Assembly: GCA_963810095.1 (NCBI GenBank)
Contig: CAWEMM010000006.1
Coordinates: 640,001-704,000, forward strand
Length of the DNA stretch: 64,000 nucleotides
Direction of reading: 5' to 3'
Source of the DNA: an uncultured Chloroflexia bacterium
GTDB lineage: Bacteria; Chloroflexota; Anaerolineae; CG2-30-64-16
The notes under the pieces: generated by a model
Told to the model about the DNA's origin: nothing
Seen by the model: the letters and a program-made list of their open reading frames with translations, nothing else
Database searches by the model: none
Shown here: piece after piece, positions 1-54,379 of the stretch
Layout: every line of letters starts with the position of its first letter
Numbering within the stretch: the stretch's first letter is position 1
Position numbers and translations under genes: made by a program

Positions 1-529
1 GGTTGAACAGGATGCCGGAGCAGGCGAACAGGTCGTAGCTCTCGCGGTAGTTGACCGTAATCCAATGGCCGTAGAGCTTGGCCGCGCCGTACGGACTGCG
101 CGGGTAGAACGGGGTGCTCTCCCGCTGGGGCACTTCCTGCACCTTGCCGAACATCTCGGACGACGAAGCCTGGTAGAAGCGGATATGCCGGTCGACGATG
201 CGGAGGGCGTCGAGCACACGGGTAACGCCGAGCCCGGTGAACTCGCCGGTGAGCACGGGCTGTTGAAAGCTGGTGGGCACGAAGCTTTGCGCCGCGAGGT
301 TGTAGACCTCGTCCGGCCGGTGCTCCTGCAACAGGTTGATGAGGCTCACCTGGTCCAACAGGTCGCCCTGTACGATCGTCAGCTTATCCTGGATGTGGCG
401 CACGCGGTCGAAGTTGATCGTGCTGGTGCGCCGCACCATCCCGATCACTTCGTAACCCTGCCCCAGCAGGAAATCGGCCAGGTACGAGCCGTCCTGCCCG
501 GTAATGCCTGTCACCAATGCCTTTGGCAT
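1..529 (-). CDS. gmd: GDP-mannose 4,6-dehydratase (N-terminal part, runs off window)
   Basis: Minus-strand read from ATG at 529: [22 protein letters not shown]..., later [18 protein letters not shown]; typical Gmd motifs. Confidence 0.93.
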
Positions 530-4397: not shown

Positions 4398-4425
4398 GTA
4401 GGGACGAGCTTAAGCTCGTCCCTAC
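4398..4425. repeat. GTAG-type REP, perfect 28-bp palindrome
   Basis: gtagggacgagcttaagctcgtccctac equals its own reverse complement. Confidence 0.8.
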
Positions 4426-5722: not shown

Positions 5723-5789
5723 CTCTAAGACAAAGACACAAAGGCACGATGCTCTCTTTCATTGTGTCCTGGTGTCTTTGTGTTGAGAG
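5723..5789. repeat. ACACAAAG-family palindromic element
   Basis: acaaagacacaaaggcacgatg ... cattgtgtcctggtgtctttgt. Confidence 0.7.
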
Positions 5790-5792
5790 AAG

Positions 5793-6759
5793 CTACTTTC
5801 GATTGAGCATATCTTCCAGCTCGGGCGCGTCGCCGAACACTTCCCGGTAGCGCGCCACGAACTCTGGCACGGTGTAACGGTGGTTCATCGTCCCCACCTG
5901 TTCGAGGCAGTAGGTCGCCGCCAGCGCGCCGATCCGGCCGCTGACCTCCCAGGGGTAGCCCCGGACGAGGCCGACGAGCATCCCGCCGCGGAACGCATCG
6001 CCCACGCCCGTCGGATCGGCGATGTGCTGCGGAGGCGCAACCGGCACGTCGACCCGCCGCTGGGGAGCCATGAAGCTCGCGCCCTCTGCGCCCCGGGTGA
6101 CTACCAGCAAGGCGACCTTCTGCAGGATGCCGGCCTCGTCGAGCCCGGTCTTCTGCTTGAGCACCTCCAGCTCGTAGTCGTTGACGGTCAGGCTGAACGC
6201 GCCGTCAATCCCCTCCAGCACCTGCTCTGCGCTCAGGCGCGGCGAGCTGCTGGCTGGGGTCGAAGATGAACGGCAGCCCGAGTTCCCGGCACTCCCGGCA
6301 GTTGAGGAGCATCCCTTCGGGGTCGTGGGGCGAGATGATGACGTAGTCGATCTCCGCCTTATCGAGGCCCCGGTAGGTCAGCTCCTTGCCCCGCTGCATC
6401 GCGCCCGAGTGGAAGCCGGCGATCTGGTTCTGCTCCAGGTCGGTGATCACGGTGAAGGTGGCGGTGAACTCGTCCGGGTACGTCACGACCAGCGAGGTGT
6501 CGATCCCCTGCAGCTCGAGCCACTGGCGATACTCGGCAAAGTCCTGGCCCACCGTGCCCATCAACCTGGGCCGCTCGCCCAGCAGCGCCATGGTGTAGGC
6601 AATGTTCGGCCCGATGCCGCCCCGGCTCATCTGCTTGTCCTCGACGAGGAAGCTGACGCTGAGCTTGCCGGTCTGCTCGATAAAGATGTGCTCCCGAAAC
6701 TTGCCGGGATACCTCATCAGGTAGTCGGTCGCAATCGACCCGGTCACGATAACTGACAT
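5793..6759 (-). CDS. PfkB-family kinase, adenosine kinase-like (frameshift near 6240)
   Basis: MSVIVTGSIATDYLM..., FDPSQQL, DPTGVGDAFRGG; resembles the actinobacterial adenosine kinase type; next to ahcY. Confidence 0.8.
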
Positions 6760-6779
6760 GCTACTCCTCGTGTTCGCCC

Positions 6780-6830
6780 AGACCTTCGAGGTTTCGACCG
6801 TCACCCGAGGTGACGCAACCTCGCAGGTCC
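6780..6830. repeat. REP-like element (AGACCTxCGAGGTT family) with inner hairpin
   Basis: agaccttcgaggttt ... gtcacc-cga-ggtgac ... aacctcgcaggtc. Confidence 0.7.
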
Positions 6831-7750
6831 TAAAGGCCCCGAAGCTCTTTCGCCTTCTGAACCCGTTCTTCCGCGATCCGGCAGTACTCTTCCGAAATCT
6901 CATACCCGACGTAATGCCGGCCCTCCGGCACCGCGGCCACCGCGGTCGAGCCGCTGCCCATGAACGGGTCGAGCACGACGTCGCCGGGCTTCGTGTACAG
7001 CAGCATCAACCGCCGCGGCAGTTCTTCAGGGAAGGGCGCCGGATGATCTACGCTCGTCTCCGTGGTCATCGACCAGATCGACTCGCTGTCGTCCGCGCCT
7101 TGGGCGCCCTGCGCCCACACCGACCGGGCGATGGACTCGGCGATCCAGGCATCGTCTTTGCCGCGGCGCCGCGCATCGGCCAGCTTGGCCTCGATCTTGC
7201 GCTGCAGGTCCTTCAAGCCATCCTCGGGCCGCCAGATGCTGCGGGTCCAGGCGACGAACTCGTTGCCCGAGATGCCGGTCGCCCCGCCGCCTTCCAGCTT
7301 GAGCTGATCCTTGCTCCACACCGTGATGTACTCGTGCACGTCACGCAGCGTCGGATTGCTGGAACGGCCGAAGCTGCCCCACGCCGTCGAAATGCCGGCC
7401 GACGCGCCCTTGTCCCAGATGATGTGCCCCCGGTGCAGCCAGGTACAGCTGCTTCGCCGCAGCTGCTCGTCGATCAGGCTGACCAGCGAAAGATACGGCT
7501 TGCGGTCCGTGTTCGCCACGTTCACGCACAGCCGCCCGCCGGGAACAAGCACCCGGTGGCACTCGCGCCAGACCGCCTCCAACATCGCCAGGTACTCGTC
7601 CAGCCCCAGGTTGTCGTTATGGACGGTGTAGTCCTTCGCGACGTTGTAGGGCGGCGAGGTGACGACGAGGTGCACGCTGCGGTCGGGCACGCCCGCCATG
7701 CTGCGGGCATCGGCGCAGAAGATGCGGTCAAGGTAGAGATCGTTGGTCAT
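6830..7750 (-). CDS. Site-specific DNA methyltransferase (N4/N6, beta class), no adjacent endonuclease
   Basis: TSPPY motif IV before HPAPFP and VLDPFMGSGST motif I. Confidence 0.9.
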   Translation of the reverse strand: MTNDLYLDRIFCADARSMAGVPDRSVHLVVTSPPYNVAKDYTVHNDNLGLDEYLAMLEAVWRECHRVLVPGGRLCVNVANTDRKPYLSLVSLIDEQLRRSSCTWLHRGHIIWDKGASAGISTAWGSFGRSSNPTLRDVHEYITVWSKDQLKLEGGGATGISGNEFVAWTRSIWRPEDGLKDLQRKIEAKLADARRRGKDDAWIAESIARSVWAQGAQGADDSESIWSMTTETSVDHPAPFPEELPRRLMLLYTKPGDVVLDPFMGSGSTAVAAVPEGRHYVGYEISEEYCRIAEERVQKAKELRGL

Positions 7751-7808: not shown

Positions 7809-10013
7809 TCATTGCTTGCCTGCCATAACCGGCACGAGCGCGGCCGGCGGGATCGTCGTCAGCCAGGTTTCCCCGGCCGCAACCCCAACCTGCCCATTCC
7901 GCTCGTCATAAATGGCAACGACGGCCGGGTAGTCGCCGGGGGGCATGTCGCCCGGCATCGCCAGGTGCGTCACCTGCACAAACTCTTGTCCCGGCTGCCA
8001 ACCCTGATACGCCAGGGCCAGCAGCTCGTCGGTCTGGGCCCAGGTGCGGCCGCTCGCATCCTGGAGGCGGGCAGACAGTTTGGGCGGCATGTCGCGCGAC
8101 CAGGGCTGCAGCACGCGCCACCGGGTCACCAGGTCGATGCCATCTCCCGACGGCACACTCCCGGCGGCGACGAGTGCCAGCGTGTCGCCGTAGCGCAGCG
8201 GCACACTAAGCCCTCGCACGCCCACCGACTCGAGCGCCGCATCGACCGTCCCTTGATCCAGCGTCGCCACCCTCAGCAACTCTCCGACCGGCTGCGCCCG
8301 GTCGAACAATGGGAGCAGCGCCGCATCCCGGCTGCTCTCGGCCGAGGCGGTCCAGACGTAGGTTGCCCGGCCGCCCTGGGGCGGCAGCGGCAGGCCGTGC
8401 GGCCCGTAAAACCAGGTCACGTCGGCCCGTTTCGGCTGATAGAGCAGGTACGTCTGCTGGTCCAGGTCGAGCCAGAAATCTGTGCTGATGTAAAGCGGGT
8501 CGCCTGCGGGCGCCAGCGCCGAGTAGTCCGCCGCGGCTCGCAGGTCGCCGTTGTAGATGCGCTGCGTGACCACGCTGGCCGGCCAGCGCTCGAAATACGC
8601 CACCGCGTTGTCGGTCCAGTGATCGACAAACAACACGAGGAGGAGCATGCCGGCGACCACCGGCCAGGTGTCCGGTCACAAGCGGAACCGGCCGAAGGCC
8701 ACCCGGCGCACCAGGACGCCCGCGCTCCACAACCCCGCAGCAACGTACACGAACACCAGCGGCATGGCGACGATGGCCCGCAGGTAGAACGGCCCGCCGG
8801 GCGTGATCAGCGCGGGGGCCAGGCCCAGCGCCAGCGCCGTCAGCCAGAGCCGCTCGCGGCGGCTCCGAAACACCCGGGGCAGCGCGACGAGCACGCCCAC
8901 CACGAAGAGCACGGCCAGGACGGGCGAGAGCGCGGGCCTCCCGGGCAGGTTGTACTGGTAGAGCAGGCCGGCCGGCTCACGCCACAGCAGCGTGGCGAGC
9001 CCCTCGCCGATCGTGCGGAGCAGCGGGAGCAGCTGGCCCCGCGCCGCCTCGCTCAACGGGCCGGCGAGCTCCCCCACCCGGCGCTCGGCGCCCGGATGGG
9101 CCCGCAGCCACAGCAGCAGCGGCGCGCTGACCAGGGCCATCACCAACCAGGACAGGAGCAGGCCGGCGACCGGGCCATCCACGAATGAACGAATACCGGC
9201 CGAATGAACCGATTCCCCCGTCGCAACAAGAGACTTCCCCGCTTGCGCGGCCATTCGTTCATTCGTCTGACGTTCGTTCATTCGTGGATGGCCGCGCCGC
9301 ACCCGGCGCACCAGCCACCCGACCCCCTCGTACAGGATCAGCAGCGGGGCCAGGGCGAAGAGCGCCCGAGCCGACAGGTACGTGTAGATCGCCAGCCCAC
9401 CAAACAGCCCGCTCAGCAGGAACGGCCCGAGCGAACCCTTCACAGGAAGGACCGAAGAACCGAAGTTCCCCAAAGGTCCTGAGAGCTTTGTGAGCCTTCG
9501 TGTCTTCGGTTCTTCGTGGTGAAGATCCCCGTCGCGTACAGCGCTCAACCCCCGGTCGAGCCAGTAGATCATCGCCGCGCCGAGCGTCATGGCCGAGATG
9601 GCCCGGAGCCCCACCCGGCCGGTGAACAGGAACCAGAACGAGCCCGCCATGAGCAGGACTGCGACGAGCGCCGCGGCGAACGGCAGCTTGCGCCGGGCGA
9701 GGCCGATGCTGACCGCCGCGCCGAGCGTGGCCCACACGACCGAGGCCAGGCGCAAGCCCCAGATGAACTGCCCGTTCGCCAGCTTGAACAGGGCCGCGGC
9801 CGAGTAGATGAAGAGGGGCTCGCGCCCGAAATTGGCTGTAAAGTAGATGCGATAGCGGCCGTAGAGGAGCTCGATGGCATCTACGATGTTAAAGACCTGG
9901 TCGTGCTGGACGCCGGGCGGGACGTCGTTGAGGCGCACCATGAGCGCAGCAAAGGCGACGAGCACCACTCCCGCCGCCGCCAACGCCCGCCACGTCCGCC
10001 CTGCCAGCCTCAC
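7809..10013 (-). CDS. GT39/ArnT-like membrane glycosyltransferase (frameshift near 8680)
   Basis: [19 protein letters not shown] and multiple TM segments; GTG start overlaps mtnA stop (GTGA). Confidence 0.75.
9173..9293. repeat. Palindromic element inside GT39 CDS, 21-bp perfect terminal IR
   Basis: ggccatccacgaatgaacgaa ... ttcgttcattcgtggatggcc; reading frame stays open. Confidence 0.85.
9438..9524. repeat. 87-bp ACACGAAG-family palindromic element inside GT39 CDS
   Basis: cttcacaggaaggaccgaagaaccgaag ... cttcgtgtcttcggttcttcgtggtgaag; 29 codons. Confidence 0.75.
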
Positions 10014-11169
10014 ACCTGCTCTCCCCGCGACCGTGTACGATTCACACGAAAGACACCGAGACACCAAGAATAGACGTTGTGCCTTGGTGTCTTTGTGTTA
10101 TTCTGTGCACTCTTTGCTCGACGCTGCTGCGCGGCCTCGACGGCCTTGCGGAGGCTGACCTCGAACGGCGGGTAGCAGATGCCCTCTTCGGTGATGATGC
10201 CGGTGAGATAACGGTGCGGCGTGACGTCGAAGGCCGGGTTGTAGACCGCAACACTCTCGGGCGCGATCCGCTCGGCCCCCACCATGGTCACTTCTTCGGC
10301 GTTCCGTTCCTCGATGGGAATCAGGTCGCCGTTGGCCAGGCTCAGGTCGATCGTCGGCGTGGGCACCACCGAGTAGCACGGGATGCCGTTCTCTTTCGCC
10401 AGCACCGCCAGCTTGTACGAGCCGATCTTGTTCGCCACGTCGCCGTTCGCCGCCACCCGGTCCACGCCGTAGAGCACCACCTGCACCCGGCCCAGGCGCA
10501 TGAGCATGCCCGAGGCATTGTCGGCGATGAGGGTCATCGGGATCTCGTCGTGCATGAGCTCCCACGCGGTGAGCCGGGCGCCCTGCAGGCGGGGCCGCGT
10601 CTCGTCCACCCACACGTGGATGCCCTTGCCCCCCTCGTGCGCCGCCCGGATCACGCCCAGCACCGTGCCGTAGTCGACCGTGGCCAGCGAGCCCGCGTTG
10701 CAGTGCGTCAGGATGTTGGCCCCCTGCGGGACGATCTCGGCGCCGAACGCGCCCATGCGCCGGTTGATCTCCACGTCCTCGTCCGCGATGCGGTCCGCCT
10801 CGGCCAGGACCGCCGACCGGATGTCGTCGACGTTAGCAAGAGCACGAGGTGCGCCGCATCGTCCAACACGGTCGTGGTCGCCCAGCTGAGGTTGACCGCA
10901 GTGGGGCGGGACGCATCGAGCACCTGCTTTGCCGCACGGAGGTCGGCCAGCAAGCCGTCGCGATCCGTCGCGCCGCTCTGAAACGCAGCCAGGGCCATGC
11001 CATAAGCGCCCGCCGCGCCGATGGCCGGCGCACCGCGCACGACCATGTCGGTGATGGCCTGCGCCACCGCCCGGTAGTCGTCGTAGGAGAGAACGGTGTA
11101 GGTCAGCGGCAGGATGCGCTGATCGATCATCTTGAGCTGGTTGTTTTCCCACCATAGGGTGCGCGGCAT
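10010..11169 (-). CDS. mtnA: S-methyl-5-thioribose-1-phosphate isomerase (frameshift near 10850)
   Basis: [43 protein letters not shown] and NPAFDVTP motifs. Confidence 0.95.
10043..10107. repeat. ACACAAAG-family element within the mtnA 3' end
   Basis: gacaccgagacaccaag ... cttggtgtctttgtgtt. Confidence 0.7.
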
Positions 11170-11235
11170 CTTGACTTCGTCCTTGACGTCTCTTCGAGAA
11201 ACTGCAGCGTTTCTGCGTCACGAGGCATTAGAAAT

Positions 11236-11747: not shown

Positions 11748-14009
11748 ATGCGTAAGCTTCTGGCTTCTCCTCGTCCCTGCGCTCTTCCTCGCGACCGCGG
11801 CGTCGCCGCAGCCGCGCCCACCGTCCCAACCGACATCGAGCAGCCGGGCACCCAGCCCACGCAGGTCGGCAACCTCGAAACACCGGACAAGTGCGACAAC
11901 TGCCACGGCGGCTACAACGCGGCGGTCGAGCCGGCGTTCAACTGGCGCGGCAGCATGATGGCGAACGCCAGGCCGCGACCCGATCTTCTGGGCCACCGTG
12001 GCGATCGCCGAGCAGGACTTCGACGGCTCGGGCGACCTGTGCATCCGCTGCCACAGCACGGGCGGCTGGTACGCCGGCCGCTCCACGCCCACCGACGGCA
12101 GCGGGCTGACCGCGGGCGACGCCGACGGCGTCGACTGCGACACCTGCCACAAGATGACCAACCCCAACAACAGCGAGCACCTCGGCGTGATGAACGCGCC
12201 GTACATCGCCAACAACGAGGCGACGCCCGCAACGGGCTACTACGGGTCGGGGATGCTGTCCTTGTGGGGCGGGAACGAGAAGCTCGGCCCCTACAGCGAC
12301 CCGAACGCCAAGCACGGCTTCATGCAGTCGGCGTTCCACCGCTCGGTGGATATGTGCGGGTCGTGCCACGACGTGTCCAACCCGGCCGTGGGCGACCTGG
12401 CGCACAACAACGGCAAGCAGCCAACGGGCGACGCCGGTGGTGGCGAGCGGCGTGCCCGGCGCGGCCGTGAACGGCAAGGCGGCCTTCAACAACTTCCCCT
12501 ATCAGTACGGCGTCGTCGAGCGGACCTTCAGCGAGTACAAGGCGGGGCTGCTGTCGCAGACGCTGGTGTCGAACTACGCGTCACTGCCGGCGGACCTGAA
12601 GAACGGGGCGATCAAGAACGCCTACGAGAACGTCGATCGTGGCGGGGACGAGCGGCGACTACCAGGACGGCACGGACCGCTACTTCTCCTGCCAGACGTG
12701 CCACGTGCCGCCGACGACCGGGGTGGGGTGCAACAAGGCCGGCACGCCGACCCGCCCCGACCTGCCGCTGCACGACATGACCGGCGGCAACACTGGAGCC
12801 CGACGCGATCCTGTACCAGAACACGCAGGGCACGCTGCGGCTGGGCGGCGGGCTGACGGCCACGCAGATCAATGCCATCGACGCGGGGAAGCTGCCGCGC
12901 GCAGCGGCAGCTCGACATGGCCGCCAGCCTGAGCCGTGACGGGCAACACGCTGAAGGTGGTCAACCTGACGGGACACAAGCTCATCTCCGGCTACCCGGA
13001 GGGGCGGCGGATGTGGCTCAACATCAAGTGGTACGATGCGGCCAACAACCTGCTGCGCGAGGACGGGCAGTACGGCGACAAGCAGGTGACCATCGACGGC
13101 GCAGCCAAGGTGGTGAAGACCATCCTCAACCCGGCGAGCACGAAGGTGTACGAGGCGCACTACGGGATGACGCAGGAGTGGGCGAACCAGCTGCTCGGCC
13201 TGGGCTACTCGTCCGAGCCTGGCGCTGAGCTATGACCCGACGACCGGCGCAGTCAACTACACGCTCGGGCAACTGGCCGCCCAGGCGCCGGGCACGAGCC
13301 ACGAGACGTTCCACTTCGTCCTGAACAACACGGTGGTGAAGGACAACCGCATCCCGCCGTACGGGTTCAAGTACGACGAGGCGCGCAAGCGGAACGCGCT
13401 CCCGGTTCCGGCAGCCCAGTACGGCAGCCCGGCGGCCGGCGGCACGTTCAACTACTGGGACGAGGTGACGCTGAACCCGCCGCCCGGCGCGACGGTGGGC
13501 ACGATCACGCTGATGTACCAGCCGACCAGCTGGGAGTACGTGCAGTTCCTGCAGCGGGCGAACAACAAGTCGAACGCGTTCCTGGCGAGCGAGGGCGACA
13601 ACCTGCTCGATGCGTGGCTGAACACGGGCATGGCGGCGCCCTACCCGGTTGCCGGACGCGCAGTGGACGGGGTCCGCGCCGTGCGTGGCGCCGAACGCGC
13701 TGACGGGCGTGCAGATCGCCCGGCTGAACGCGACCACGGCCCGGCTGACGTGGCCGGCGGCGGCGAACGCGAGCGCGTACAACGTCTGGCGGAACGCGAC
13801 CAACCCGTTCTTCCTGCCCGGGCGCGACGTGCTCGGCGGGCAACGGGTGCAGCCAGGTCGGGGGGACGAGCTTCGACGATGCCTCGCTGGGGAGCCCGGC
13901 GAGCCACACGAATTACCTCGTGCAGCCGGTGGCGGGGTGCGGCGCGGTGCAGACCACGCCGTCGAACCGGACGGGCGAGTTCGAGTTCACGCTGATCAAG
14001 GGGCAGTAG
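11748..14009 (+). CDS. Secreted multiheme c-type cytochrome (several frameshifts)
   Basis: CDNCH, CIRCH, CDTCH, CGSCH and CQTCH across joined ORFs; GHKLISGYPEGRRMWL; GGAGG RBS. Confidence 0.8.
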
Positions 14010-14044
14010 CCGGTTCGGGACGCGTCGCCGGGATCGGAACAACA

Positions 14045-14081
14045 AGACGGGCGACCGGATGATCCGGCCGCCCGTCTTTTT
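14045..14081 (+). terminator. Intrinsic terminator
   Basis: aagacgggcg-accgga...tccggc-cgcccgtcttttt. Confidence 0.75.
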
Positions 14082-19812: not shown

Positions 19813-19874
19813 CCGAAAATGCTCTGGCCGGGCGTGTAAGGGCGAGGCATCCGGGGGATGCCTCGCCCTTACAC

Positions 19875-19952
19875 TTCGCGCCCTTCGCGCTTTGCGCTCT
19901 TCGCCCCGCTTCGCGCCTTCGCGTTCCAAACGCGCTTCGCGCCCCTTCGCGC
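19875..19952. repeat. Short degenerate tandem repeat (TTCGCGCC-like)
   Basis: ttcgcgcccttcgcgctttgcgctcttcgccccgcttcgcgccttcgcg; similar to 61905-61985. Confidence 0.55.
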
Positions 19953-19964
19953 CTGCTCAATGCG

Positions 19965-21961: not shown

Positions 21962-22774
21962 CTACATTTCGTTCGCGCGCAGCCACAGATACATCAGAAC
22001 ACCCCCTGCCACGCCCACGTTCAACGACTCCGCCTTGCCGCGCATGGGCAGGCTGACCCAGCGGCGGATGTGCGGGGTGACGTCGGGCGACAGGCCGCGC
22101 GCTTCGTTCCCCAGGATCAGCGCGCACCCACCCCGCAGTGCAGTTGTGCCCCAGGGGTCGCTCTGCAGCGACGCGGCGTGCTCGCTCGCGCCGACGGGGA
22201 CGATCCCCTTGCCGTCGAGGTAGCGCAGCGCCGCTCCCGCGTCGGCCGCGGAGGCGATGGGCAGGTTGAACAGCGAGCCCATGCTGGCCCGGATCGCCTT
22301 GGGGTCAAAGAGGTCGACCGCGGGCTCGAGGATGACGACGCCCGTTGCGCCCACCGCGTCGGCCGTGCGGATCAGCCCGCCGAGGTTGCCCGGGTCTTGC
22401 GGCCGGTCGAGCACGAGGACGAGTTTCGCGCCGTGCAGCGCGAAGGCTGGGAGGGGCGTGGTGAACAGGGGGAAGGACGCGACGATCCCCTGGGGTCCCT
22501 CGCGCTCCGAGAGCGCCGCCATCACCTGGGGCGTCACCTCGAAGAGCTCGACCGGGGTGCTGCGGTCGAACCGCTCGATCAACAGGGGGCCCTGCGGACC
22601 CGTAAAGTTGGGGGGGCAGTAGAAGACCTGGGCGGGCGCGCGGCCGCTGTCCAGCGCCATCGTCAGCAGCTGCAGGCCCTCGACGAGAAAGCGGCCCTGG
22701 TCCTCGCGATGCTTCCGCTGCCGCAGCTTGCGGGCTTCGACAACGTGGCGGTTGGCGGTGGAAGTGATGATCAT
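21962..22774 (-). CDS. TrmH/SpoU RNA methyltransferase
   Basis: QDPGNLG, LGNEARGL and ESLNVGVA motifs. Confidence 0.92.
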   Translation of the reverse strand: MIITSTANRHVVEARKLRQRKHREDQGRFLVEGLQLLTMALDSGRAPAQVFYCPPNFTGPQGPLLIERFDRSTPVELFEVTPQVMAALSEREGPQGIVASFPLFTTPLPAFALHGAKLVLVLDRPQDPGNLGGLIRTADAVGATGVVILEPAVDLFDPKAIRASMGSLFNLPIASAADAGAALRYLDGKGIVPVGASEHAASLQSDPWGTTALRGGCALILGNEARGLSPDVTPHIRRWVSLPMRGKAESLNVGVAGGVLMYLWLRANEM

Positions 22775-22805
22775 GGGCAGCAGGCCGGAAAAGCCGGCTT
22801 CTGAG

Positions 22806-23383
22806 CTACGTCCCAAACGACGACAGCGCCCGGCGCAGCCGCTCTTCGACGTCCGTGACGTCTCGGGGCAGCGCCTGCACGGCCCGCTGGGCCTCCACGA
22901 TGCTGTAGCCCAGCGCGGTCGAGCGCGTCGATCACCGCCGCATCCGCCTCGGTCAGCGCGGCAAGCCCCTCGCTGACCTCCACCTCCCCCATCTTGTCCT
23001 TCAGCTCGAGCACGATCTTGCCCGCCGTGCGCTTGCCGATGCCGGGCACCCGCGGCGAGCATGTCCGCGTGCTCCTGGCCAATGGCCATGCGGAGCGCGT
23101 CGGGGGCCATGTTGCTGAGCACGCTCAGCGCGAGCTTGGGGCCCACCCCCGAGACGGTGATGAGCTTGTGGAACAGATCGAGCTCGTCTTCGGTGGCAAA
23201 GCCGATCAACGAGAGATCGTCCTCACGCACCACCAGGTGGGTGTGGAGCAGGACGAGCTCGCCCACCCGGCTTGCCTTCAGCAGCGGCTGTGGGACGAGG
23301 ACGCGCAGGCCCACGCCACCGACCATGACGATCAGCGCGTCGTTCAGCCTCGCGAAGATGGAGCCCTGTACAATCGAGATCAT
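22806..23383 (-). CDS. ruvA: Holliday junction branch migration protein RuvA (frameshifts)
   Basis: GGVGL, VREDDLSL, LITVSGVGPKLAL and VPGIGKRTAGKIVLELKDK motifs. Confidence 0.92.
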
Positions 23384-23412
23384 CGGATTTCCAAAGATTC
23401 AACGGCACGCTG

Positions 23413-23486
23413 GTTTGACTGACTGGACTGATCTTCATGATCCTTGCAGGAGAAGACGAGCGAAGATCAGTCCATCCAGTTCAATC
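23413..23486. repeat. Palindromic element between ruvC and ruvA
   Basis: tggactgatcttc ... gaagatcagtcca. Confidence 0.6.
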
Positions 23487-23492
23487 TGCGTC

Positions 23493-24806: not shown

Positions 24807-24891
24807 CACCACAAAGACACAAAGACACAAAGGTGCACAAAGACGCCAACAAGAAGCTTTGTGGAGCTTCGTGTCTTCGTGCCTTGGTGGT
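24807..24891. repeat. ACACAAAG-family palindromic element
   Basis: accacaaagacacaaagacacaaag ... cttcgtgtcttcgtgccttggtggt. Confidence 0.8.
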
Positions 24892-33634: not shown

Positions 33635-33668
33635 AGACACCGGGTTTCTTCGAAGAAACCCGGTGTCT
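33635..33668. repeat. AGAAACC-family perfect 34-bp palindrome
   Basis: agacaccgggtttcttcgaagaaacccggtgtct. Confidence 0.85.
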
Positions 33669-36341: not shown

Positions 36342-36393
36342 AAGACACCAGGTTTCAACCGCCGGCTTCGCTGACGCAGAAACCTGGTGTCTT
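36342..36393. repeat. AGAAACC-family IR between convergent genes
   Basis: aagacaccaggtttc ... gaaacctggtgtctt. Confidence 0.8.
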
Positions 36394-38044: not shown

Positions 38045-38095
38045 AGAAACCAGGTCTCTCTCGCCAGCGGCGCTGGCGCAAGAGACCTGGTTTCT
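38045..38095. repeat. AGAAACC-family IR with inner hairpin
   Basis: agaaaccaggtctct ... cgccagc/gctggcg ... agagacctggtttct. Confidence 0.8.
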
Positions 38096-48458: not shown

Positions 48459-48526
48459 CAACACAAAGGCACAAAGACACAGAGGTTCAGGCTGGGGGAG
48501 CCCGCTGTCCTTGTGCCTTTGTGTTG
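48459..48526. repeat. ACACAAAG-family palindromic element
   Basis: caacacaaaggcacaaagaca ... tgtccttgtgcctttgtgttg. Confidence 0.8.
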
Positions 48527-48535
48527 GGCGGGCGA

Positions 48536-50571
48536 TTAGCGGAGGACGACCGGCAGATAGATCCTGGCCGCGTGCTGAGGGGTCGGGGTGGGCGTAGGCT
48601 CGGCGATGCCGTTCCAGGCGCCGAAATACACCGTGGTCTCGCGCCGCCGGCTCGATCGCCAGCGCGATCTGCTGCGGCGTGGTCAGCAAGTAGCCCTCAG
48701 GCAGCGGGTCGGCGCTTAACACGTACGAGCCGAGTGCGAGTGTGTCAAATCCGTAGTAGCCATCCGGTGCCGCGAGGTGGTGTACGCGATGGGCTGGTCA
48801 TTCTGATAGAGGAACAAGCCGGCATCCGCCACCCCGCGCGTCTCCCACGCCTGCCGGATGCCGTCGCCGTTACTGTCCAGGAACACCCGTCCCCACAAAG
48901 CCGGCCGGATCGAGCTCTTAACCGTCTGCGCGTTATCTGCCGGCGTGAGTTCACGCTGGGCCGCAGCGGCCGACGCGGTCGTCGTCAGTTCGCCATTCCC
49001 GACAACGGTCGGCGTCACCACCACGCCGATGGTGACGCTCTCGCCCGGGTCGAGCCGGCTGACTCCGCAATTCATCTGCCGCCCATTCAGCCGGCAGCTC
49101 TGCGCCGAAAACAAGACGGCATCCATTGCCGGCTCAGCAGGCAGCACGGCACTCAAGGAAACACTCGTCGCGCTCGCGGTCCCGACGTTGGCGATGCTGA
49201 AGGTCGCGGTCAGGGGATTGCCGGCAACGACCGCCTGGGGCACCACGGACGCGCTCAGCCGCAGATCCACAGGCTGCACGGGCGCGCTGACGGCGGCCGC
49301 CGCGTCCAGCCGACCCCAGCCGGTCTCATCGTCCTTGCCGGGCATCCCGACATCCTGGACCGCGCCGAGAAGCTGCGCCTTCACGCCATCCGCCGTGAGC
49401 GCAGGCCAGCGCGACCAGACCAGGGCTGCGGCGCCGGCGACAAAGGGGACCGACTGAGATGTGCCGCCCTCAGACCGGTAGCCATGCTGCCCGAGGCCGC
49501 TGTAGTACCAGGTGCTGTAGATGTCTGTGCCGGGGGCCGCCAGGTCGATGCCGCGCACCGGGATTCGAGAATGCCGCAGGGTGGTCGGAAGGATCTGTGG
49601 CCGCGACGGCCAGCGCGCCGGGGCACATCGCGGGATAATAAACGACCGTGTCATTATTGCCGGCGGCCGCCGCCACCACTTTGCCCTTTGCGACCGCAGT
49701 GCTCACCGCGTCACACAGGGTCGCGGACGGAGACGGGCCTCCCAGGCTCAGGCTGATAATATTCGCCCCATTGCCCGCGGCATAGAGAATGCCGGCCGCC
49801 ACATCGGAGTACAGCGCTGTGCTGCCAGAGACGCCCAGCACCTTAACGGTCATCAGCTGGGGACCCCACGCGGTGCCGGCGACGCCGATGCCGTTGTTCG
49901 TGGCGGCGGCGGCAATGCCTGCAACATGAGTCCCGTGGCCGTTTTCATCCCCCACTCGTCCATCGCCGTACGCACCTTCGGGGGTGCGGAAGCGACAGCC
50001 GTAGATGTCGTCGATGCACCCGTTGAGCTCGTCGTCCCTGCCGTTGTTGGGAATCTCGGCCGTGTTCTGCCACAGCTTGCCGGCCAGGTCCGGGTGCGCC
50101 AGGTCCGTGCCCGAATCGATCACCGCAATCACCACGGCCGGCGCGCCGGTTGTCACATTCCATGCTTGCGGCGCGCCAATCTGCGCCAATCCCCACTGCT
50201 TCCCGGCGATATAACTTGGATCGTTTGGCTCGGCTTGCGCGCTGGCCGCGTAATCCAATTCCGCGTAGGCCACATCGCCCTGGCGGGAGAGCTGCTCTGC
50301 CGCCGAGGCTTCCTGCCCGACCGGAACCGCGACGACCAAGACCCCGAGGCCCTGGATTTCCTGGATCACATCCAGCCCTTGAACGGCCAGCGCGGCCCGG
50401 CCGGCAAGCCCCTTGCCCGGCTTGAACTTCACGAGCACGGTGCCCGGCCGGTAGCCGGCCAGCGACACAGCCGGGGTTGCCTGCAACTGCTGCGCGGGAA
50501 ACGGCGGGCTGCGAAGGCAACAACGCCAAGGCCAACAATGACGTCAAAAACAACAGCATGTATCGTCGCAT
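48536..50571 (-). CDS. Secreted S8 subtilase with DUF11 and SdrD-B-like domains (frameshifts)
   Basis: IDSG, HGTHVAG and GTSQSVP triad; C-terminus ...PTPTPTP...IYLPVVLR. Confidence 0.85.
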
Positions 50572-50682: not shown

Positions 50683-53600
50683 TCAAGGCTTGCGGTACGT
50701 GACCTCAAGCTTCGGCAGGTTGCTGCCCAGCCACGTGTTCTCCGTGCTTGGGAAGCGATAGGTTGTAAAGCTGGTGGCGTCGGCCAGGCGCACGAGAACG
50801 CCGTGGTTCGCTGCACTGCTGGCCACCCACTTCTGGGCCGCAGCCGTCACGTCGATCTTGACCCACTTGCCGACGTCCGCCTTGGTGATGGGCGCCATGC
50901 CCACTGCCATCGGATCGACGTCGCCGCCCGGCTTGGTCCAAGGCGTCTTCCAGGTCACCGTGCTCTGGGCCCAGCCGGTTAGCACCTCGTGAGCTGCCAG
51001 GTTCGCCGCCGACCCACCGCCGCCGAAGCCCTCGACGTACAGCCACAGGGTGGCCTTATCCACCGGGTACGACGCGTCGATCGAGCTCACGTCAAACTGC
51101 ACGAGTGCGCGCAGGACATCGTCGCCGCCCGTGTAGATAAACGGCCAAGTTCCGTAATTGGTGCTGGGCAAACCGCGTGAGATGTAGCTGTCTGCAGTGG
51201 CAGGGAACACGTCCGTGGCAATCTCGCTGGCGGTCTTGATCGTCAGCGCATCGCTATCCAGCGCCCGCACGAAGGTGCTCGTGTCGAAGATCGCCACCGA
51301 ATGGCGGATCTCGCCGCTCTTTGCCGTGACGAGCGTGGAGAAGCCGAAGTTGGCCGTCCCGCCGGTGCCCGGCTTGGCCATGGCGGCCACGCCGATGATC
51401 GCGCCCGCATCCGCGCCCGCGCAGCCCTTCGATGCTGGCGACGCCTGCCTGCTTGGCAAGCTTCGCAGCCTCAGCCGAGGTGATCGGGAACGCGCCGCCG
51501 TAGGTGCTGCCTTCGACGTACTCCTCCTCGGAGTCGAGCGGGGCGATGAACAGGCCGTTGATCGGGCTGCCGATGTTGGTCGCCTTGACGTCGACCTTAA
51601 CCGTGCTGCCCATGACCAGCGGGTCGCTGCTCGGGGTCTGCGTCACCGCGCCCTCGAAGTCCTGCATTGCATTCCAAACCTTGACGGTTGCGACCGAGTC
51701 GGTCTGGTCGACGATCTGCACGTGCCAGCCGTACTGCGCCATCAGGTCGCCCGGATTGCCCGAGCCGCCGGCGTAGCCGGTGCCCGACTGGGTACCAGTA
51801 GCAGGACAGCACGCCTGTCGCGGTGGGGCCAGGCAGCGGTAGCGGAGCGGCCGTGGATCGGAGTGAAGCCCGCCGCGTCGCCTTGACCGTATAGGCCTTC
51901 TTGGCAGGCATGACATACGCTGGCGTCCCACTGCTTCGTCAGCCACACCTTGGCCGCCTGGGCCGGGCTGCCGCGTCGCGAACTCTGCGCCGGGGTAGTA
52001 GCCGTAGGAGTCATGGAAGCTCGAGACGGCCGGCCGGCTGGCGTAGTTAACGGGTCCCTTGCCGGCATAGTCGCTGGTGAAGTACGGTTCGTGTCCTTGA
52101 GCGAGAAGGGCGCATCGCGCATCTGGCCGCGGGTCGACCAGTTCGCCTGCATGTTCGGGTAGCCCGGCAATGACCCAGTTCGTGATCACGCAGCGGGTCC
52201 GGATGCGAGTCGACGACGAGCAGCATGCCCTTCGGGCCGAAGCTCGGGTAGTCGGTCAGGTAGCCTTCGATTTCGTTGTCGCCGTAGAAATCGTTGTTGT
52301 ACCAGACGATCAAGCCGGTGTCCGCCGGACCGTAGCGCCAGCTTGGATTCGCCAAGCGAGCTGTCATAGCCGCCCGTTCGGCTGGTGTTGCGCCATTGCA
52401 GGTAGAACCGCTGGCCGAAGGTCTGCATGCCACTGCTGCGCTGCCACGGCGCTGCATAGACCCACTTTGCATCGCCGTACTCAGCATCGTCCGCGAACAG
52501 CACCGTCTCACCCGCCATCACCTTGACGTTGTCGACAAACGGGCCTTCGTACGTCGTGCCCCAGTCCGTCATGTACCACAGGCGCAGCCAAACGTTCTTG
52601 CCGGCAAACGCGCCGAGGTCGAAGGTCTGGGTGTCGGGCTCGGGGAAGTTAGCGTTGTAGTCGGTCAAGCCGCCGATACCGGCCGCGCACAGATCCTCGG
52701 GGAACCCATACTCGCCGCCGATCCAGCTGCCATCGTGCGTACAGGTCGTGTTAGCGTTGGTCAGGGTCTTCCAGTTAGTGCCGTCTTCCGACGCCTGCAC
52801 CCACATGAAGTCCCATTCCGTCTCGATGCCGTAGGCAGCATCGAACGAGAACGTTGCGCCGCCCGCGGGGATGGCGATCGGCTCCTTGGTGGTCATGCTG
52901 GCATTGGCGACGTCTTCTTTGCCGCCCCACCAGTAATGCTGGCCCTGCCAGACCGGAACGGGCAACGGTGACTTCGCCGTCCGGCAGCTCGATCTTGGCG
53001 CCGCGGTAGACGCCCTCGCCGCCCGGGAAGCTGCTGGCCTGGCCGAGCTTGAAGGTGTATGTCTTGCTGGGGTCAGAGATGGCCTTCGGCTTCAGCCAAC
53101 CCCACCAGTCCAGGTGCATCGCATCGACGGACGGCGGCTCGAAGCCGATCGGGTAGCCGGTCCAGTCGTCGGCCTGTAGGGCCCAGAAGCCGGCGGAGGT
53201 CTCGCCTTCGCCGTAAGCAGTAGACGTCGTCGGCGCCCAGGTTGTGGGCGTACTCATGGGCGAAGACGCCAATGCCGCCGTTCTCGGGCATGACGATGTA
53301 CGGGCCGGCCGCCACATCAGGGGCGACCTTGAACGGCGGCGTCACGGAGCTGGAATGCGACCAGACTGCGGCCTCGCCGTAGTCGGTGCGGTTGGTCAGA
53401 GGCGGTGCGCGTCTTCCTCACCGTATCCGGCATGCACGATCCAGAGCCGGTCGATGATGCCGTCGCCGTTCTGGTCGTAGTTGTGCCAGTCGAAGCCGGG
53501 GATCGTGTTGCTGATCGCGTTAACCGCGTTGAGCGCAGTCCTCGAACCAACTGCCGGGCGTTGCCGGCGCCAGGGATGACGCCACGCGAGGCGCCGCTGG

Positions 53601-54379
53601 AGCCGCTGATTGCCGAGCGGCCGCCGGGGCACTGGTCGGCGTCGTAGTACCAGGTCGAGTGGGGCACCTGCACCCAGCCAATCACGTCGCCGGCGATTTC
53701 ATACGTCGCCGCCCGACATGTCGAGGAAGTAGTCCTTCACCGACTGCCCGGTGAAGTCCTCATTCACGACCGAGCCATCCTGGCGGGTGTACTGGAACTT
53801 CACCCCGTCGCCCCACATGAAGGCCTTGAACCAGTCGGCGCTGAAGTCCTCCGTCCAGATCGTGTCGGCCAGAGCGGTCGGCTTGCGGAAAGGGGCCGCG
53901 GGAATCTGGTTGTGGAGCGGTCCGCTGTAGGTGAAGGTCTTGGTCTGGGTGATGATCTTGGAGCAGTCGCCAAGGACCACGTGCGCCGCTTGCGTCCGTG
54001 ACAGCTTCGTTGGGATCGGCAATGCCGTATGGGTCCCACTTGTCACCCGGGTTCCACGTGAACGTGTCGGTGCCCGCGAACTCGACGAGGATGACGAGCA
54101 CGCGGTCGTCCGCGTTCAGGGACAGGGACTGCGCCTCGAGATATTGGCCGTTGGCCAACAGGCGTTGTCGCTCCTTGTTGCGCTGGTAATCCTTGAGGTT
54201 GGGCTGGTCGATGGTTTTGCCGGGGTTGGTCTTGCCCTGCCGGCGACCCTGTCGACGGACATTTGGCCGGTCGGCGCATCGCCCGGAGCGGGTGGATTGG
54301 CGCCGGCCACGGCGGTAAGGAGAAGACTCGCGATTAACGCGAAAACCGTAACGAGGGACAACATTCGCAGACGTTGCAT
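50683..54379 (-). CDS. Secreted M6 (immune inhibitor A-like) metalloprotease with C-terminal DNRLRE-like domain (many frameshifts)
   Basis: VLVILVEF, IVHAG, GVFAHEYAHNLG, VVDSHP; C-terminal ADSYI...ALVQFD...NHGVLV. Confidence 0.82.

Follow-up and report, generated by a model that had tools for sequence, protein, structure and literature searches.

How do palindromic DNA elements come to be read as part of a protein? In-frame palindromic repeats are a textbook case of selfish or simple DNA turning into protein sequence and, to our knowledge, most documented cases come from Rickettsia and from a few Proteobacteria and cyanobacteria. The question is raised here by a glycosyltransferase gene of an uncultured Chloroflexota bacterium, in which an earlier inspection of the DNA letters (below, the sequence-only reading) had noticed two different palindromic elements. 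We designated them E1 and E2 and followed them up in the window, i.e., the whole stretch of 64,000 nucleotides that was analyzed. The features discussed are collected in Table 1.

Table 1. Positions of the repeat elements and of the parts of the host gene in the window
Feature	Position	Strand	Description
E1	9173..9293		two-tier hairpin, 121 bp; terminal inverted repeat of 21 bp, perfect; arms composed of ~8-nt units (CGAATGAA-type)
E2	9438..9524		imperfect hairpin, 87 bp, 29 codons; arms of 8-nt units (CGAAGAAC-type); member of the loose CACAAAGA-type family
E3	10036..10106		AAGACACC units; lies between mtnA and the start of the glycosyltransferase gene, within the final 32 codons of the stop-to-stop ORF of mtnA
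E4	5727..5784		ACAAAGAC units; 8 nt past the stop codon of the pfkB-like gene
E5	24807..24891		(CACAAAGA)x2.9; adjoins the pyrG stop codon; closest relative of E2
E6	48459..48526		CACAAAGG units; 9 nt past the stop codon of the thioredoxin gene
Host ORF	8676..10067	-	463 aa from TTG 10067; N-terminal multi-TM part of a PMT_2-like GT-C glycosyltransferase
In-frame TGA	8676..8678	-	closes the TM part; the C-terminal-domain ORF resumes 5 codons downstream in the same frame
C-terminal-domain ORF	7809..8660	-	predicted periplasmic domain of the same glycosyltransferase; match to P0003

Structure of the two elements

Direct comparison of the arms bore out the length, terminal repeat and internal subrepeats that had been ascribed to E1. 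Positions 9173-9193 and 9273-9293 are exact reverse complements of each other (21 nt, 100%), the unit ACGAATGAACGAAT recurs inside the element (9181-9194 versus 9253-9266, 14 nt, perfect), and TRF found a period-8 array of 3.9 copies at 9252-9285. Folded as single-stranded DNA, E1 reaches -44.8 kcal/mol (z -7.0; none of 200 shuffles was as good); the corresponding mRNA fold has -80 kcal/mol (z -8.1). The element makes up residues 259-299 of the host protein, in frame. As 121 bp is not a multiple of three, the net insertion must be either 120 bp (9174-9293, 40 codons) or 117 bp; probably it is 9174-9293, exactly 40 codons, and the outermost G:C pair of the hairpin may be fortuitous. GGCC stands at both ends of E1, but this sequence is itself palindromic and hence ambiguous as a target-site duplication. 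A second copy of E1 was not found in the window, and blastn against a plasmid collection returned neither E1 nor E2.

E2 is indeed an inverted-repeat element of 87 bp, as described earlier, and its hairpin is imperfect. The two arms (9443-9478 and 9483-9518), each 36 nt long, are complementary at 75% of their positions and contain a perfect core of 13 nt, and the ends of the element, CTTCAC…GTGAAG, lie within this arm pair. The DNA fold has -25.5 kcal/mol (z -5.5), which none of 200 shuffles matched, and the RNA fold -45.3 kcal/mol (z -4.2). In the host protein, E2 corresponds to residues 182-210, again in frame.

Related hairpins in the window

The likeness of E2 to elements at 5723, 24807 and 48459, which the sequence-only reading had pointed out, holds. 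The comparison with E5 (24807-24891) gave 63 identical positions of 94 (z 7.4 against shuffles), a score equal to the best one among the family members themselves, whereas E7, an unrelated hairpin, has a z near 0 against the family. TRF detected period-8 arrays in the arms of all six elements (E1-E6); these arrays are short and degenerate (2.2-3.9 copies, 72-91% matches), and in 10 of the 12 half-elements the autocorrelation is highest at lag 8. The CACAAAGA-type unit is present at five window sites, and the fold of E3 has a z of -3.3. Judged by sequence, E2 and the four intergenic hairpins form a loose family. E1 shares its architecture, i.e., arms of ~8-nt tandem units.

Altogether, the window contains 12 strong inverted repeats, and only E1 and E2 are both foreign and intragenic. 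Besides E1 and E2, a second PMT-like gene contains an intragenic inverted repeat (63487-63580), which was discarded as native coding sequence, with a GC3 of 0.88 and a TM segment encoded by it. There is also a separate GTAG-tagged palindrome at 4398-4425.

The host gene

The multi-TM N-terminal part, the conserved acidic residue and the soluble C-terminal domain (here a separate ORF) give the host the layout of a GT-C glycosyltransferase. The C-terminal-domain ORF is 57% identical to residues 400-567 of the homologue P0003 (E 4e-55), and in P0003 as well as in more distant homologues this domain is fused to the TM part. In the database version, the host protein starts at GTG 10013 and has 445 aa. 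The gene had been labeled GT39. It resembles PMT_2-like GT-C enzymes, but the GT39 assignment is less firm than that: with the Pfam PMT_2 profile, the host scores 21.2 bits (E 3.7e-4), below the gathering score of 26.1, and the match ends at profile position 89, ~12 residues ahead of E2. PF13231 (PMT_2) is present in homologues (e.g., P0005), and the Atlas look-alikes of the host are PMT_2 clusters (score 0.96, 187 of 256 features), one of which (rank 10) carries the automatic name 'family 39'. Nothing was found for the host in NCBIfam, and PDB sequence searches with the profile of the orthologue alignment A1 and with P0005 gave no significant match. Inserts of this kind lower Pfam scores, PMT_2 being under the cut-off here, and yield 'orphan' peptide segments in annotation.

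The in-frame TGA could mean that the host is a pseudogene gathering junk, or that the inserts are an artefact of error-prone long-read assembly. Other genes of the window are also split across frames (the pfkB-like gene, mtnA, a subtilase gene), multi-frame ORF runs are found at 12-14 kb and 50.7-54 kb, and E1 is an orphan. While the TGA and the frameshifted genes may reflect relaxed selection or assembly error, decay or artefact is a highly improbable source of the inserts themselves. Both of them keep the frame and are open, though each is open in only two of the six frames. All 34 columns that are invariant in alignment A1 are kept in the host, including D56, which we take to be the conserved acidic residue of the first outer loop with the role assigned to it in the GT-C literature, and the host has a GC3 of 0.92. 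The protein P0002, which comes from another assembly, stops at the same point as the TM part of the host (alignment A1). Furthermore, an assembly foldback would duplicate local sequence, and no such duplication was seen, whereas hairpins built in the same way are present at four intergenic window sites and in independent assemblies of other species. The gene presumably still works.

Foreign composition and absence from close relatives

At the three codon positions, the host gene outside the inserts has GC values of 0.71/0.51/0.92, versus 0.68/0.53/0.50 in E1 and 0.59/0.45/0.55 in E2. Local GC over the inserts is 0.53-0.58, versus 0.70-0.83 in the flanks. Both elements are foreign to the host gene, and their composition is non-native. 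The comparison of the insert sites with those of orthologues, made at the protein level, agrees with this: P0003 (60% identical, A1) has short loops at both sites, without E1 and without E2, and P0002 (73% identical, A1) has no E1 and, where E2 sits in the host, carries a 19-aa segment unrelated to it. Orthologues carrying the same peptides would have spoken for native segments of the protein; they do not carry them, nor was either peptide found in any other protein searched. Among 5.8 billion proteins, the host itself was the only one returned for the translated frames of E1 and E2. The sole match among 1.84 billion representatives, P0038 (1566 aa), is an adhesin-like protein with 8 repeats, each weakly matching 27 residues, and was dismissed as chance.

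The peptides are as quoted in the sequence-only reading, i.e., hydrophilic inserts in the open frame between TM helices, with hydrophobic segments on either side. According to our own arithmetic, two neutral inserts would both have a length divisible by three and be open in about 1 in 81 cases, which points to selection keeping the ORF.

We consider it moderately probable that E1 and E2 are copies of dispersed hairpin repeats which entered the glycosyltransferase gene after its divergence from the closest known relatives. They would derive from a dispersed class of small non-coding hairpins, inverted pairs of arrays of ~8-nt units, that in this genome would normally lie just downstream of stop codons. 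The two inserts would persist because their net length corresponds to whole codons, the used frame has no stop, and the loops tolerate extra length. These loops would be cytoplasmic, on the face opposite to the periplasmic catalytic side, and the translated inserts would extend them by peptides of 29 and about 40 residues that are hydrophilic and mildly basic. Entry would presumably have proceeded through transposition-like dispersal in the manner of REP/REPIN or MITE elements.

The sequence-only reading had inferred that several palindrome families are, or were, mobile here. The segments that the closest orthologues lack and the relatedness of E2 to hairpins between genes are in line with this, whereas mobility itself is not borne out by the window. 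No transposase, RAYT or parent IS was detected in a Pfam scan of 66 window ORFs, and the flanks of E1-E6 contain no direct repeat that is a clear target-site duplication. Moreover, identity among the family copies reaches only 57-67%, and their unit numbers vary, unlike in recently transposed MITEs, which counts against the dispersal of hairpin repeats as the origin of E1 and E2. So does the lack of a second E1 copy in the window, the plasmid collection, the 78 contig loci listed below and, for its translated frame, the proteins searched. We regard the event as an RPE/REP-like in-frame repeat insertion in which the mobility of the elements is presumed.

Repeats at the same loop in distant orthologues

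Both inserts are predicted, from hydrophobic segments and K+R counts, to lie in cytoplasmic loops. A contig search with alignment A1 matched at least 78 loci with ≤38% identity; the source genome and the genomes of P0002 and P0003 are not among the matches listed. In the 78 distant orthologues among the matches listed, the two insert loops are hot spots of length variation, which fits the earlier view that the inserts sit in tolerant loops between TM helices. Among the matches listed, the E2 loop contains a period-7 array of at least 2.5 copies at 18 of 76 orthologous loci, i.e., this predicted cytoplasmic loop of one glycosyltransferase family is repeat-filled in about a quarter of the distant orthologues listed. 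Period-7 arrays are ~13-fold denser there than elsewhere (18 loci in 4,986 nt, versus 45 arrays in 162,066 nt of the rest of the ORFs, matches listed). Some of the arrays form hairpins: pure direct arrays are present in L008 (12.6 copies), L030 (8.7 copies) and L062 (5.4 copies), inverted pairs in L014, L025 and L056. L032 and L046, whose proteins are 72% identical, differ by unit-sized indels in this loop.

As the same loop carries direct arrays as well as hairpins in distant orthologues, local growth by slippage is a serious alternative to mobile palindrome families. Starting from a short seed, the elements would have grown in situ, with units of 7-8 nt multiplied by replication slippage and one arm copied into the other by intrastrand template switching; nothing would have been transposed, and the 'family' would look alike because its members share a slippage-prone seed motif. 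The arms of the elements are short tandem arrays, the 18 loci seem to form a continuum from direct arrays to inverted pairs, the indels between L032 and L046 have the size of a unit, and neither target duplications nor a transposase are present in the window. However, the recurrence of the CACAAAGA-type unit at five window sites, and of GGAGATT at 20 or more sites in 9 loci of other Anaerolineae, needs dispersal or a common template. The central spacers of E1 and E2 are unique, low in GC and without likeness to the flanking gene, which also speaks against growth in situ, and we hold this explanation to be rather unlikely.

The dispersal of hairpin repeats, which we favor, finds a parallel in these Anaerolineae relatives, where (GGAGATT)n/(AATCTCC)n hairpins are multi-copy (at least 20 elements in 9 loci); among the matches listed, 14 of 20 GGAGATT hairpins lie inside stop-to-stop ORFs of ≥150 aa. 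However, the density of strong inverted repeats counts against this reading: it is 0.071 per kb in the glycosyltransferase ORFs and 0.102 per kb elsewhere in the loci listed. The blastn comparison of all window elements with the 78 loci listed gave chance-level matches only. For the Anaerolineae, we abandoned the idea that conservation is higher in the elements than in the gene around them, since the loop DNA is 35-78% identical versus 58-76% for the flanks, and is higher only for the pair L014-L056.

Glycosyltransferase genes are classic phase-variable loci. The hairpins could have a selected function, either in the mRNA, by slowing translation or being cut and thus tuning expression level or membrane insertion, or as non-triplet arrays that act as a slippage switch for phase variation of envelope glycosylation. 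The stability of the mRNA hairpins (-80 and -45 kcal/mol) is consistent with this, as are the ~13-fold density of period-7 arrays in the loop (loci listed) and the recurrence of hairpins or arrays at the same loop in lineages with proteins 43-67% identical, some with arms still perfectly complementary. Yet a short loop without a repeat is found in P0003, the closest orthologue, and in many others, hairpin sequences vary between relatives with nothing specific conserved, and the arrays of the window are short and degenerate. No Rfam family was found over 8600-10200 and no terminator-like site at E1 or E2. Moreover, there is no frame switch at the loop: the 78 loci listed contain no OFF-frame alleles, with one HSP spanning the loop in 74 of them, two HSPs in the same frame in 3, and the region missing in 1. 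A selected function is quite improbable.

In a broader reading, Chloroflexota would possess a phylum-wide class of repeats, so far undescribed, consisting of arrays of lineage-specific 7-8-nt units that often form head-to-head hairpins and that seed and turn over at fixed cytoplasmic loops of GT-C envelope glycosyltransferases, E1 and E2 being the local octamer version. In its favor, one and the same unit persists across genomes with orthologues of only ~50% identity, and hairpins take each other's place at a single site (L014 versus L070; the window versus P0002). This is an unlikely proposal. If true, it would imply a dedicated mechanism of templated insertion or expansion, or selection on structure (a slippage switch or a translational pause), and the decay of classical MITEs would be too simple an account of the repeats.

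Comparison with known repeat systems

Rickettsia palindromic elements (RPE; Ogata et al. 2000, 2002, as cited in PMC10969869 and PMC3733652) are described as palindromes of ~100-150 bp which lie in frame in apparently functional genes. E1 and E2 resemble them in being in-frame hairpins of ~100 bp that add a peptide segment missing in orthologues. On the other hand, RPE families comprise dozens of copies in which consensus and peptide are conserved, whereas the copies here are 57-67% alike with arms of 8-nt units; furthermore, the phylum is another one and E1 has no known second copy. The likeness is an analogy by description and not a membership.

Bacterial MITEs with in-frame fusions to host ORFs include BOX, ERIC, QMITE1 and Anabaena MITEs (PMC10969869). 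The similar size, the terminal inverted repeats of E1 and the lack of own coding capacity resemble MITEs; in contrast to them, no clear target-site duplication was seen, no related IS with matching ends was detected in the window, and the identity between copies is low.

REP/REPIN elements consist of two inverted halves with a spacer and are usually extragenic, just after genes (Bertels & Rainey 2011, PMC3116915; Di Nocera et al. 2013, PMC3733652). The latter also reports occasional in-frame intragenic GTAG/CGTC REPs that encode 20-30 residues, as well as GTAG REPs in Chloroflexi (PMC3733652). With these elements, our hairpins share the two inverted halves, the spacer and the location mostly just 3' of genes. 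They differ in that E1 and E2 have no GTAG/CGTC tag, no RAYT was detected in the window, and the halves are tandem arrays rather than a single REP of 20-40 nt.

In-frame hairpin insertion is thus known as an event, whereas for this repeat type and phylum no description was found. The suggestion of the sequence-only reading that the phenomenon is undescribed in Chloroflexota agrees with the literature searched, in which coverage of subscription journals is thin. The present case adds inverted arrays of non-triplet units, in Chloroflexota, and offers a concrete system for studying how repeats enter genes, why certain loops accept them and whether expression is affected.

The STRR sequences of cyanobacteria are heptamers in dispersed tandem units. 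A (GATAGRA)n satellite is scattered in Chloroflexus aurantiacus (PMC6749651). Like both of these, the repeats studied here are species-specific tandem units of 7-8 nt, not triplets, at many loci; (GATAGRA)n and STRR are, however, described as direct arrays, whereas here inverted pairs form hairpins and are read as protein. Tandem units of 7-8 nt recurring at several loci, the STRR-like feature, are present in six elements of the window.

Hairpin elements E1 and E2

The sequence-only reading described two palindromic elements lying in frame inside one gene, which it labelled GT39, and the insertion of both in frame was borne out: the hairpins are real, since their fold z-scores and motif counts far exceed chance. 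E1 folds with -44.8 kcal/mol as DNA (z -7.0; 0 of 200 shuffles were as good) and -80 kcal/mol as mRNA (z -8.1), and its inner second stem carries the same CGAATGAAC core as the terminal repeat, giving a two-tier hairpin. The corresponding values for E2 are -25.5 kcal/mol (DNA, z -5.5) and -45.3 kcal/mol (mRNA, z -4.2). Motif searches of the window returned matches only within E1 for the E1 sequence (≤3 mismatches; 0.24 expected by chance) and only within E2 for the E2 sequence (≤2 mismatches; 0.36 expected). The window contains 12 strong inverted repeats. Three lie within genes, and of these E1 and E2 alone are foreign; the other (63487-63580) was rejected as a foreign insert, being native coding sequence with a GC3 of 0.88.

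Coordinates of the elements, the host gene and related features (nucleotide positions in the window, unless given as residues of the host protein)
Feature	Position	Strand	Remarks
Host ORF	8676..10067	-	463 aa from TTG; holds E1 and E2
In-frame TGA ending host ORF	8676-8678	-	
C-terminal domain ORF	7809-8660	-	same frame, starts five codons past the TGA
E1	9173-9293		perfect 21-nt terminal inverted repeat
E2	9438-9524		imperfect hairpin; arms 36 nt, 75% complementary, 13-nt perfect core
E3	10036-10106		family hairpin; within last 32 codons of mtnA stop-to-stop ORF
E4	5727-5784		family hairpin; 8 nt past pfkB-like stop
E5	24807-24891		family hairpin; adjoins pyrG stop codon
E6	48459-48526		family hairpin; 9 nt past thioredoxin-gene stop
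Insertion cluster	residues ~183-187		8 cases among loci listed, window's own included
Insertion cluster	residues 253-273 (E1 loop)		8 cases among loci listed, two of them the window's own
Insertion cluster	residue ~401		14 cases among loci listed
Insertion cluster	past residue 456		31 cases among loci listed
Frame-broken genes/ORF runs	5796-7005; 10013-11217; 48719-50543; 11959-14059; 50686-54115; 62352-63737		

The host gene

The database version of the host protein (P0001, 445 aa) starts with GTG at 10013. Pfam PMT_2 matches the host ORF below threshold (E 3.7e-4; 21.2 bits vs a cut-off of 26.1), the aligned stretch ending at residue 170, ~12 residues ahead of the E2 start; an NCBIfam scan of the protein and PDB sequence searches for its family gave no match. 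The domain PF13231 or PF02366 is present in its remoter homologues, and among the ten best clusters of language-model look-alikes every one with a family belongs to the PMT_2 family or clan (top cluster: score 0.96, 187/256 features common). Furthermore, all 34 invariant columns of an 11-sequence alignment are intact, including D56 of the first outer loop. On this evidence we call the host gene a PMT_2-like GT-C membrane glycosyltransferase.

The C-terminal domain ORF is 57% identical (E 4e-55) to the C-terminal part of P0003, a fused 570-aa orthologue, and the distant homologues are likewise fused. The split looks real rather than a random error, judging from P0002, an orthologue from a separate assembly that terminates at the same residue. 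Pseudogene decay or an assembly artefact, to which the in-frame TGA and a number of genes with frameshifts elsewhere in the window would point, is highly improbable as a source of the inserts, the frame being preserved through both of them and the stop position being conserved in P0002.

From the hydrophobic segments and loop charges, the N terminus is predicted to be inside and the conserved loop 47-100 outside, with RRK (122-127) and RVRR (255-258) on the inside. Hydropathy, charge and helix parity would then place the two insert loops (176-214 and 255-297) in the cytoplasm, remote from the catalytic side in the periplasm. Both insert peptides are hydrophilic, with more basic than acidic residues (K+R 5 vs D+E 2 in E2; 5 vs 4 in E1).

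Origin and reading frame of the inserts

GC contents at codon positions 1/2/3 are 0.71/0.51/0.92 in the host gene without inserts, 0.68/0.53/0.50 in E1 and 0.59/0.45/0.55 in E2, and local GC drops to 0.53-0.58 over the inserts vs 0.70-0.83 in the surroundings. In the protein alignment, P0003 (60% identical) lacks the insert peptides, having short loops at both sites, and P0002 (73% identical) is without E1 and has a different 19-residue segment at the E2 site. As judged from sequence, E1 and E2 are foreign to the gene and recent relative to it. Searched against 5.8 billion proteins, the insert peptides returned only the window's own protein; the sole match among 1.84 billion representatives, an unrelated 1566-aa protein whose eight repeats each match weakly, was discarded. 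The P0002 segment, TQTFEVSAATAGGATSKVF (aligned to window residues 182-214), itself looks like a translated palindrome, and a similar peptide, QTFEVS, can be read from an imperfect hairpin at 6770-6850 of the window.

Both elements occupy whole codons (E1, 9174-9293, 40 codons; E2, 9438-9524, 29 codons), which rules out the 121 bp first given for E1 as its net insertion; this is either 120 bp or, if the end GGCC palindromes are partly target, 117 bp. E1 and E2 are each open in two of six frames. A rough calculation gives odds of ~1 in 81 that two neutral insertions are each a multiple of three long and open, which argues that the ORF is kept by selection.

A hairpin family in the window

The intergenic hairpins E3-E6, whose arms consist of CACAAAGA-like octamers, constitute a loose family located at gene 3' ends. 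The likeness that the sequence-only reading saw between E2 and the intergenic elements at 5723, 24807 and 48459 held: E2 and E5 are identical at 63/94 positions (z 7.4 against shuffles), equalling the best within-family score (E5-E6, z 7.4; E4-E6, z 6.4), and an unrelated hairpin, E7 (23407-23491), gave z near 0 against all family members. The similarity of E1 is weak (z 4.7 with E2, 3.8 with E5), and the 64-kb window contains no second copy of it. In architecture it agrees with the others: TRF detected period-8 arrays in the arms of each of the six, and lag 8 was the top autocorrelation lag in 10 of 12 half-elements, with modest z (1.3-4.1). As assembled, E3 would encode a C-terminal tail past the end of the mtnA IF-2B domain, making it a possible third coding copy.

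As the best-supported reading, we lean slightly towards E1 and E2 being copies of dispersed hairpin repeats; that the repeats disperse is suggested by the same unit recurring at separate loci. A class of such repeats, REP/REPIN/MITE-like in behaviour, would have supplied both elements; having landed in the glycosyltransferase gene, they would owe their survival there to an intact frame free of stops and to permissive cytoplasmic loops, which they extend when translated. The sequence-only reading, which had proposed several palindrome families that are or were mobile and are tolerated in loops, is partly supported. The frame and the lack of the peptides in orthologues agree with this; on the other side, no transposase or RAYT (REP-associated transposase) domain was found among the 66 window ORFs scanned against Pfam, and the flanks of E1-E6 show no clear target duplication.

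In-frame palindromic repeats are established for Rickettsia palindromic elements (RPEs), some REPs and some MITEs, according to PMC10969869 and PMC3733652; a REPIN is a REP doublet forming a hairpin (PMC3116915). E1 and E2 work like RPEs or intragenic REPs, the likeness to RPEs being one of description. However, they have neither the GTAG or CGTC tag of REPs nor, among the 66 ORFs, the associated RAYT, and within the window they show no conserved consensus such as that of RPEs, and we cannot file them under either class.

The same loops in distant orthologues

A genome scan with the protein alignment as query yielded at least 78 distant orthologous loci, mostly from Anaerolineae and other Chloroflexota MAGs (≤38% identity among the matches listed). 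Among the 78 loci listed, the E2-equivalent loop has a length of 16 to 53 residues in the alignment frame, and insertions of ≥10 aa cluster at four places. Period-7 tandem arrays (≥2.5 copies) occur in this loop in 18 of 76 loci listed (4,986 nt of loop in total); the same ORFs have 45 such arrays in 162,066 nt outside it. Pure direct arrays occupy the loop in L008 (12.6 copies) and L030 (8.7 copies); these two and L055 (8.1 copies), all from other Chloroflexota, have long, near-perfect heptamer arrays within the glycosyltransferase ORF, in the open frame as assembled, and such arrays would be of the slippage-prone kind. Other arrays are inverted pairs forming hairpins, e.g. (GGAGATT)n…(AATCTCC)n, translated as DWRLEI…ISNLQSP. 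This continuum from direct to inverted arrays favours an origin on the spot, with units gained by slippage and template switching, which we consider possible though rather unlikely for E1 and E2. In Chloroflexus aurantiacus, a satellite family derived from a heptamer is noted at scattered sites (PMC6749651).

The loop DNA folds with z ≤ -4 in 7 of 77 loci listed. L065 has a GTAG-tagged stem at the same loop site, and L070 a 14-bp perfect stem with flanks common to L014. The hairpins of L014 (10403-10459) and L070 (10394-10444) are entirely different, whereas the proteins are 48% identical and share the flanking codons (…RKLE / SP.(F/L)SF…); the window and P0002 differ in the same way at the E2 site, and these differences between common flanks suggest hairpin turnover at a fixed site. 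A structural or switching role under selection is improbable. Three results warn against reading too much into the wider pattern: among the loci listed, loop DNA showed no general excess conservation over its flanks, none of the loci changes frame at the loop, and the glycosyltransferase ORFs are no richer in strong inverted repeats (0.071 per kb) than the other parts of the loci (0.102 per kb).

Many copies of the GGAGATT family exist: 20 elements were counted across 9 of the loci listed, with 14 of the 20 inside stop-to-stop ORFs of ≥150 aa, several of these in neighbouring ~700-aa ORFs. By reasoning, a unit of 7 or 8 nt that has no stop triplet, whatever the phase, leaves every one of the six frames open, which would explain the survival of such arrays inside genes. 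A literature search thin on subscription journals gave no account of hairpins built from unit arrays within genes of Chloroflexota; that one loop is used repeatedly in the phylum somewhat raises the interest of E1 and E2.

Other features of the window

The Pfam profile halves of the pfkB-like gene, mtnA and a subtilase S8 gene lie in different frames, and overlapping same-strand ORF runs occur in another PMT-like gene, at 12-14 kb and at 50.7-54 kb; this points to a long-read assembly with indel errors or to numerous pseudogenes. Intergenic hairpins at 33635-33668, 36342-36393 and 38045-38095, one of them a perfect 34-bp palindrome, have a common AGACACC(N)GGTTTC-type motif and may be a second family, with kinship to the AAGACAC units in E3. 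A perfect 28-bp palindrome starting with GTAG (4398-4425, between metK and ahcY) resembles the GTAG-tagged REPs reported for Chloroflexi (PMC3733652); further copies in the window did not exceed chance (7 matches vs 7.4 expected, ≤2 mismatches). At 19834-19953, a perfect hairpin with a 19-bp stem is directly followed by 16-nt and 10-nt tandem repeats (CTTCGCGCCC-type). Finally, one stop-to-stop ORF (21965-23398) joins a RuvA N-terminal domain to a downstream MRM3-like/SpoU methylase; it would be an unusual fusion, or else ruvA is truncated and runs into the next gene.
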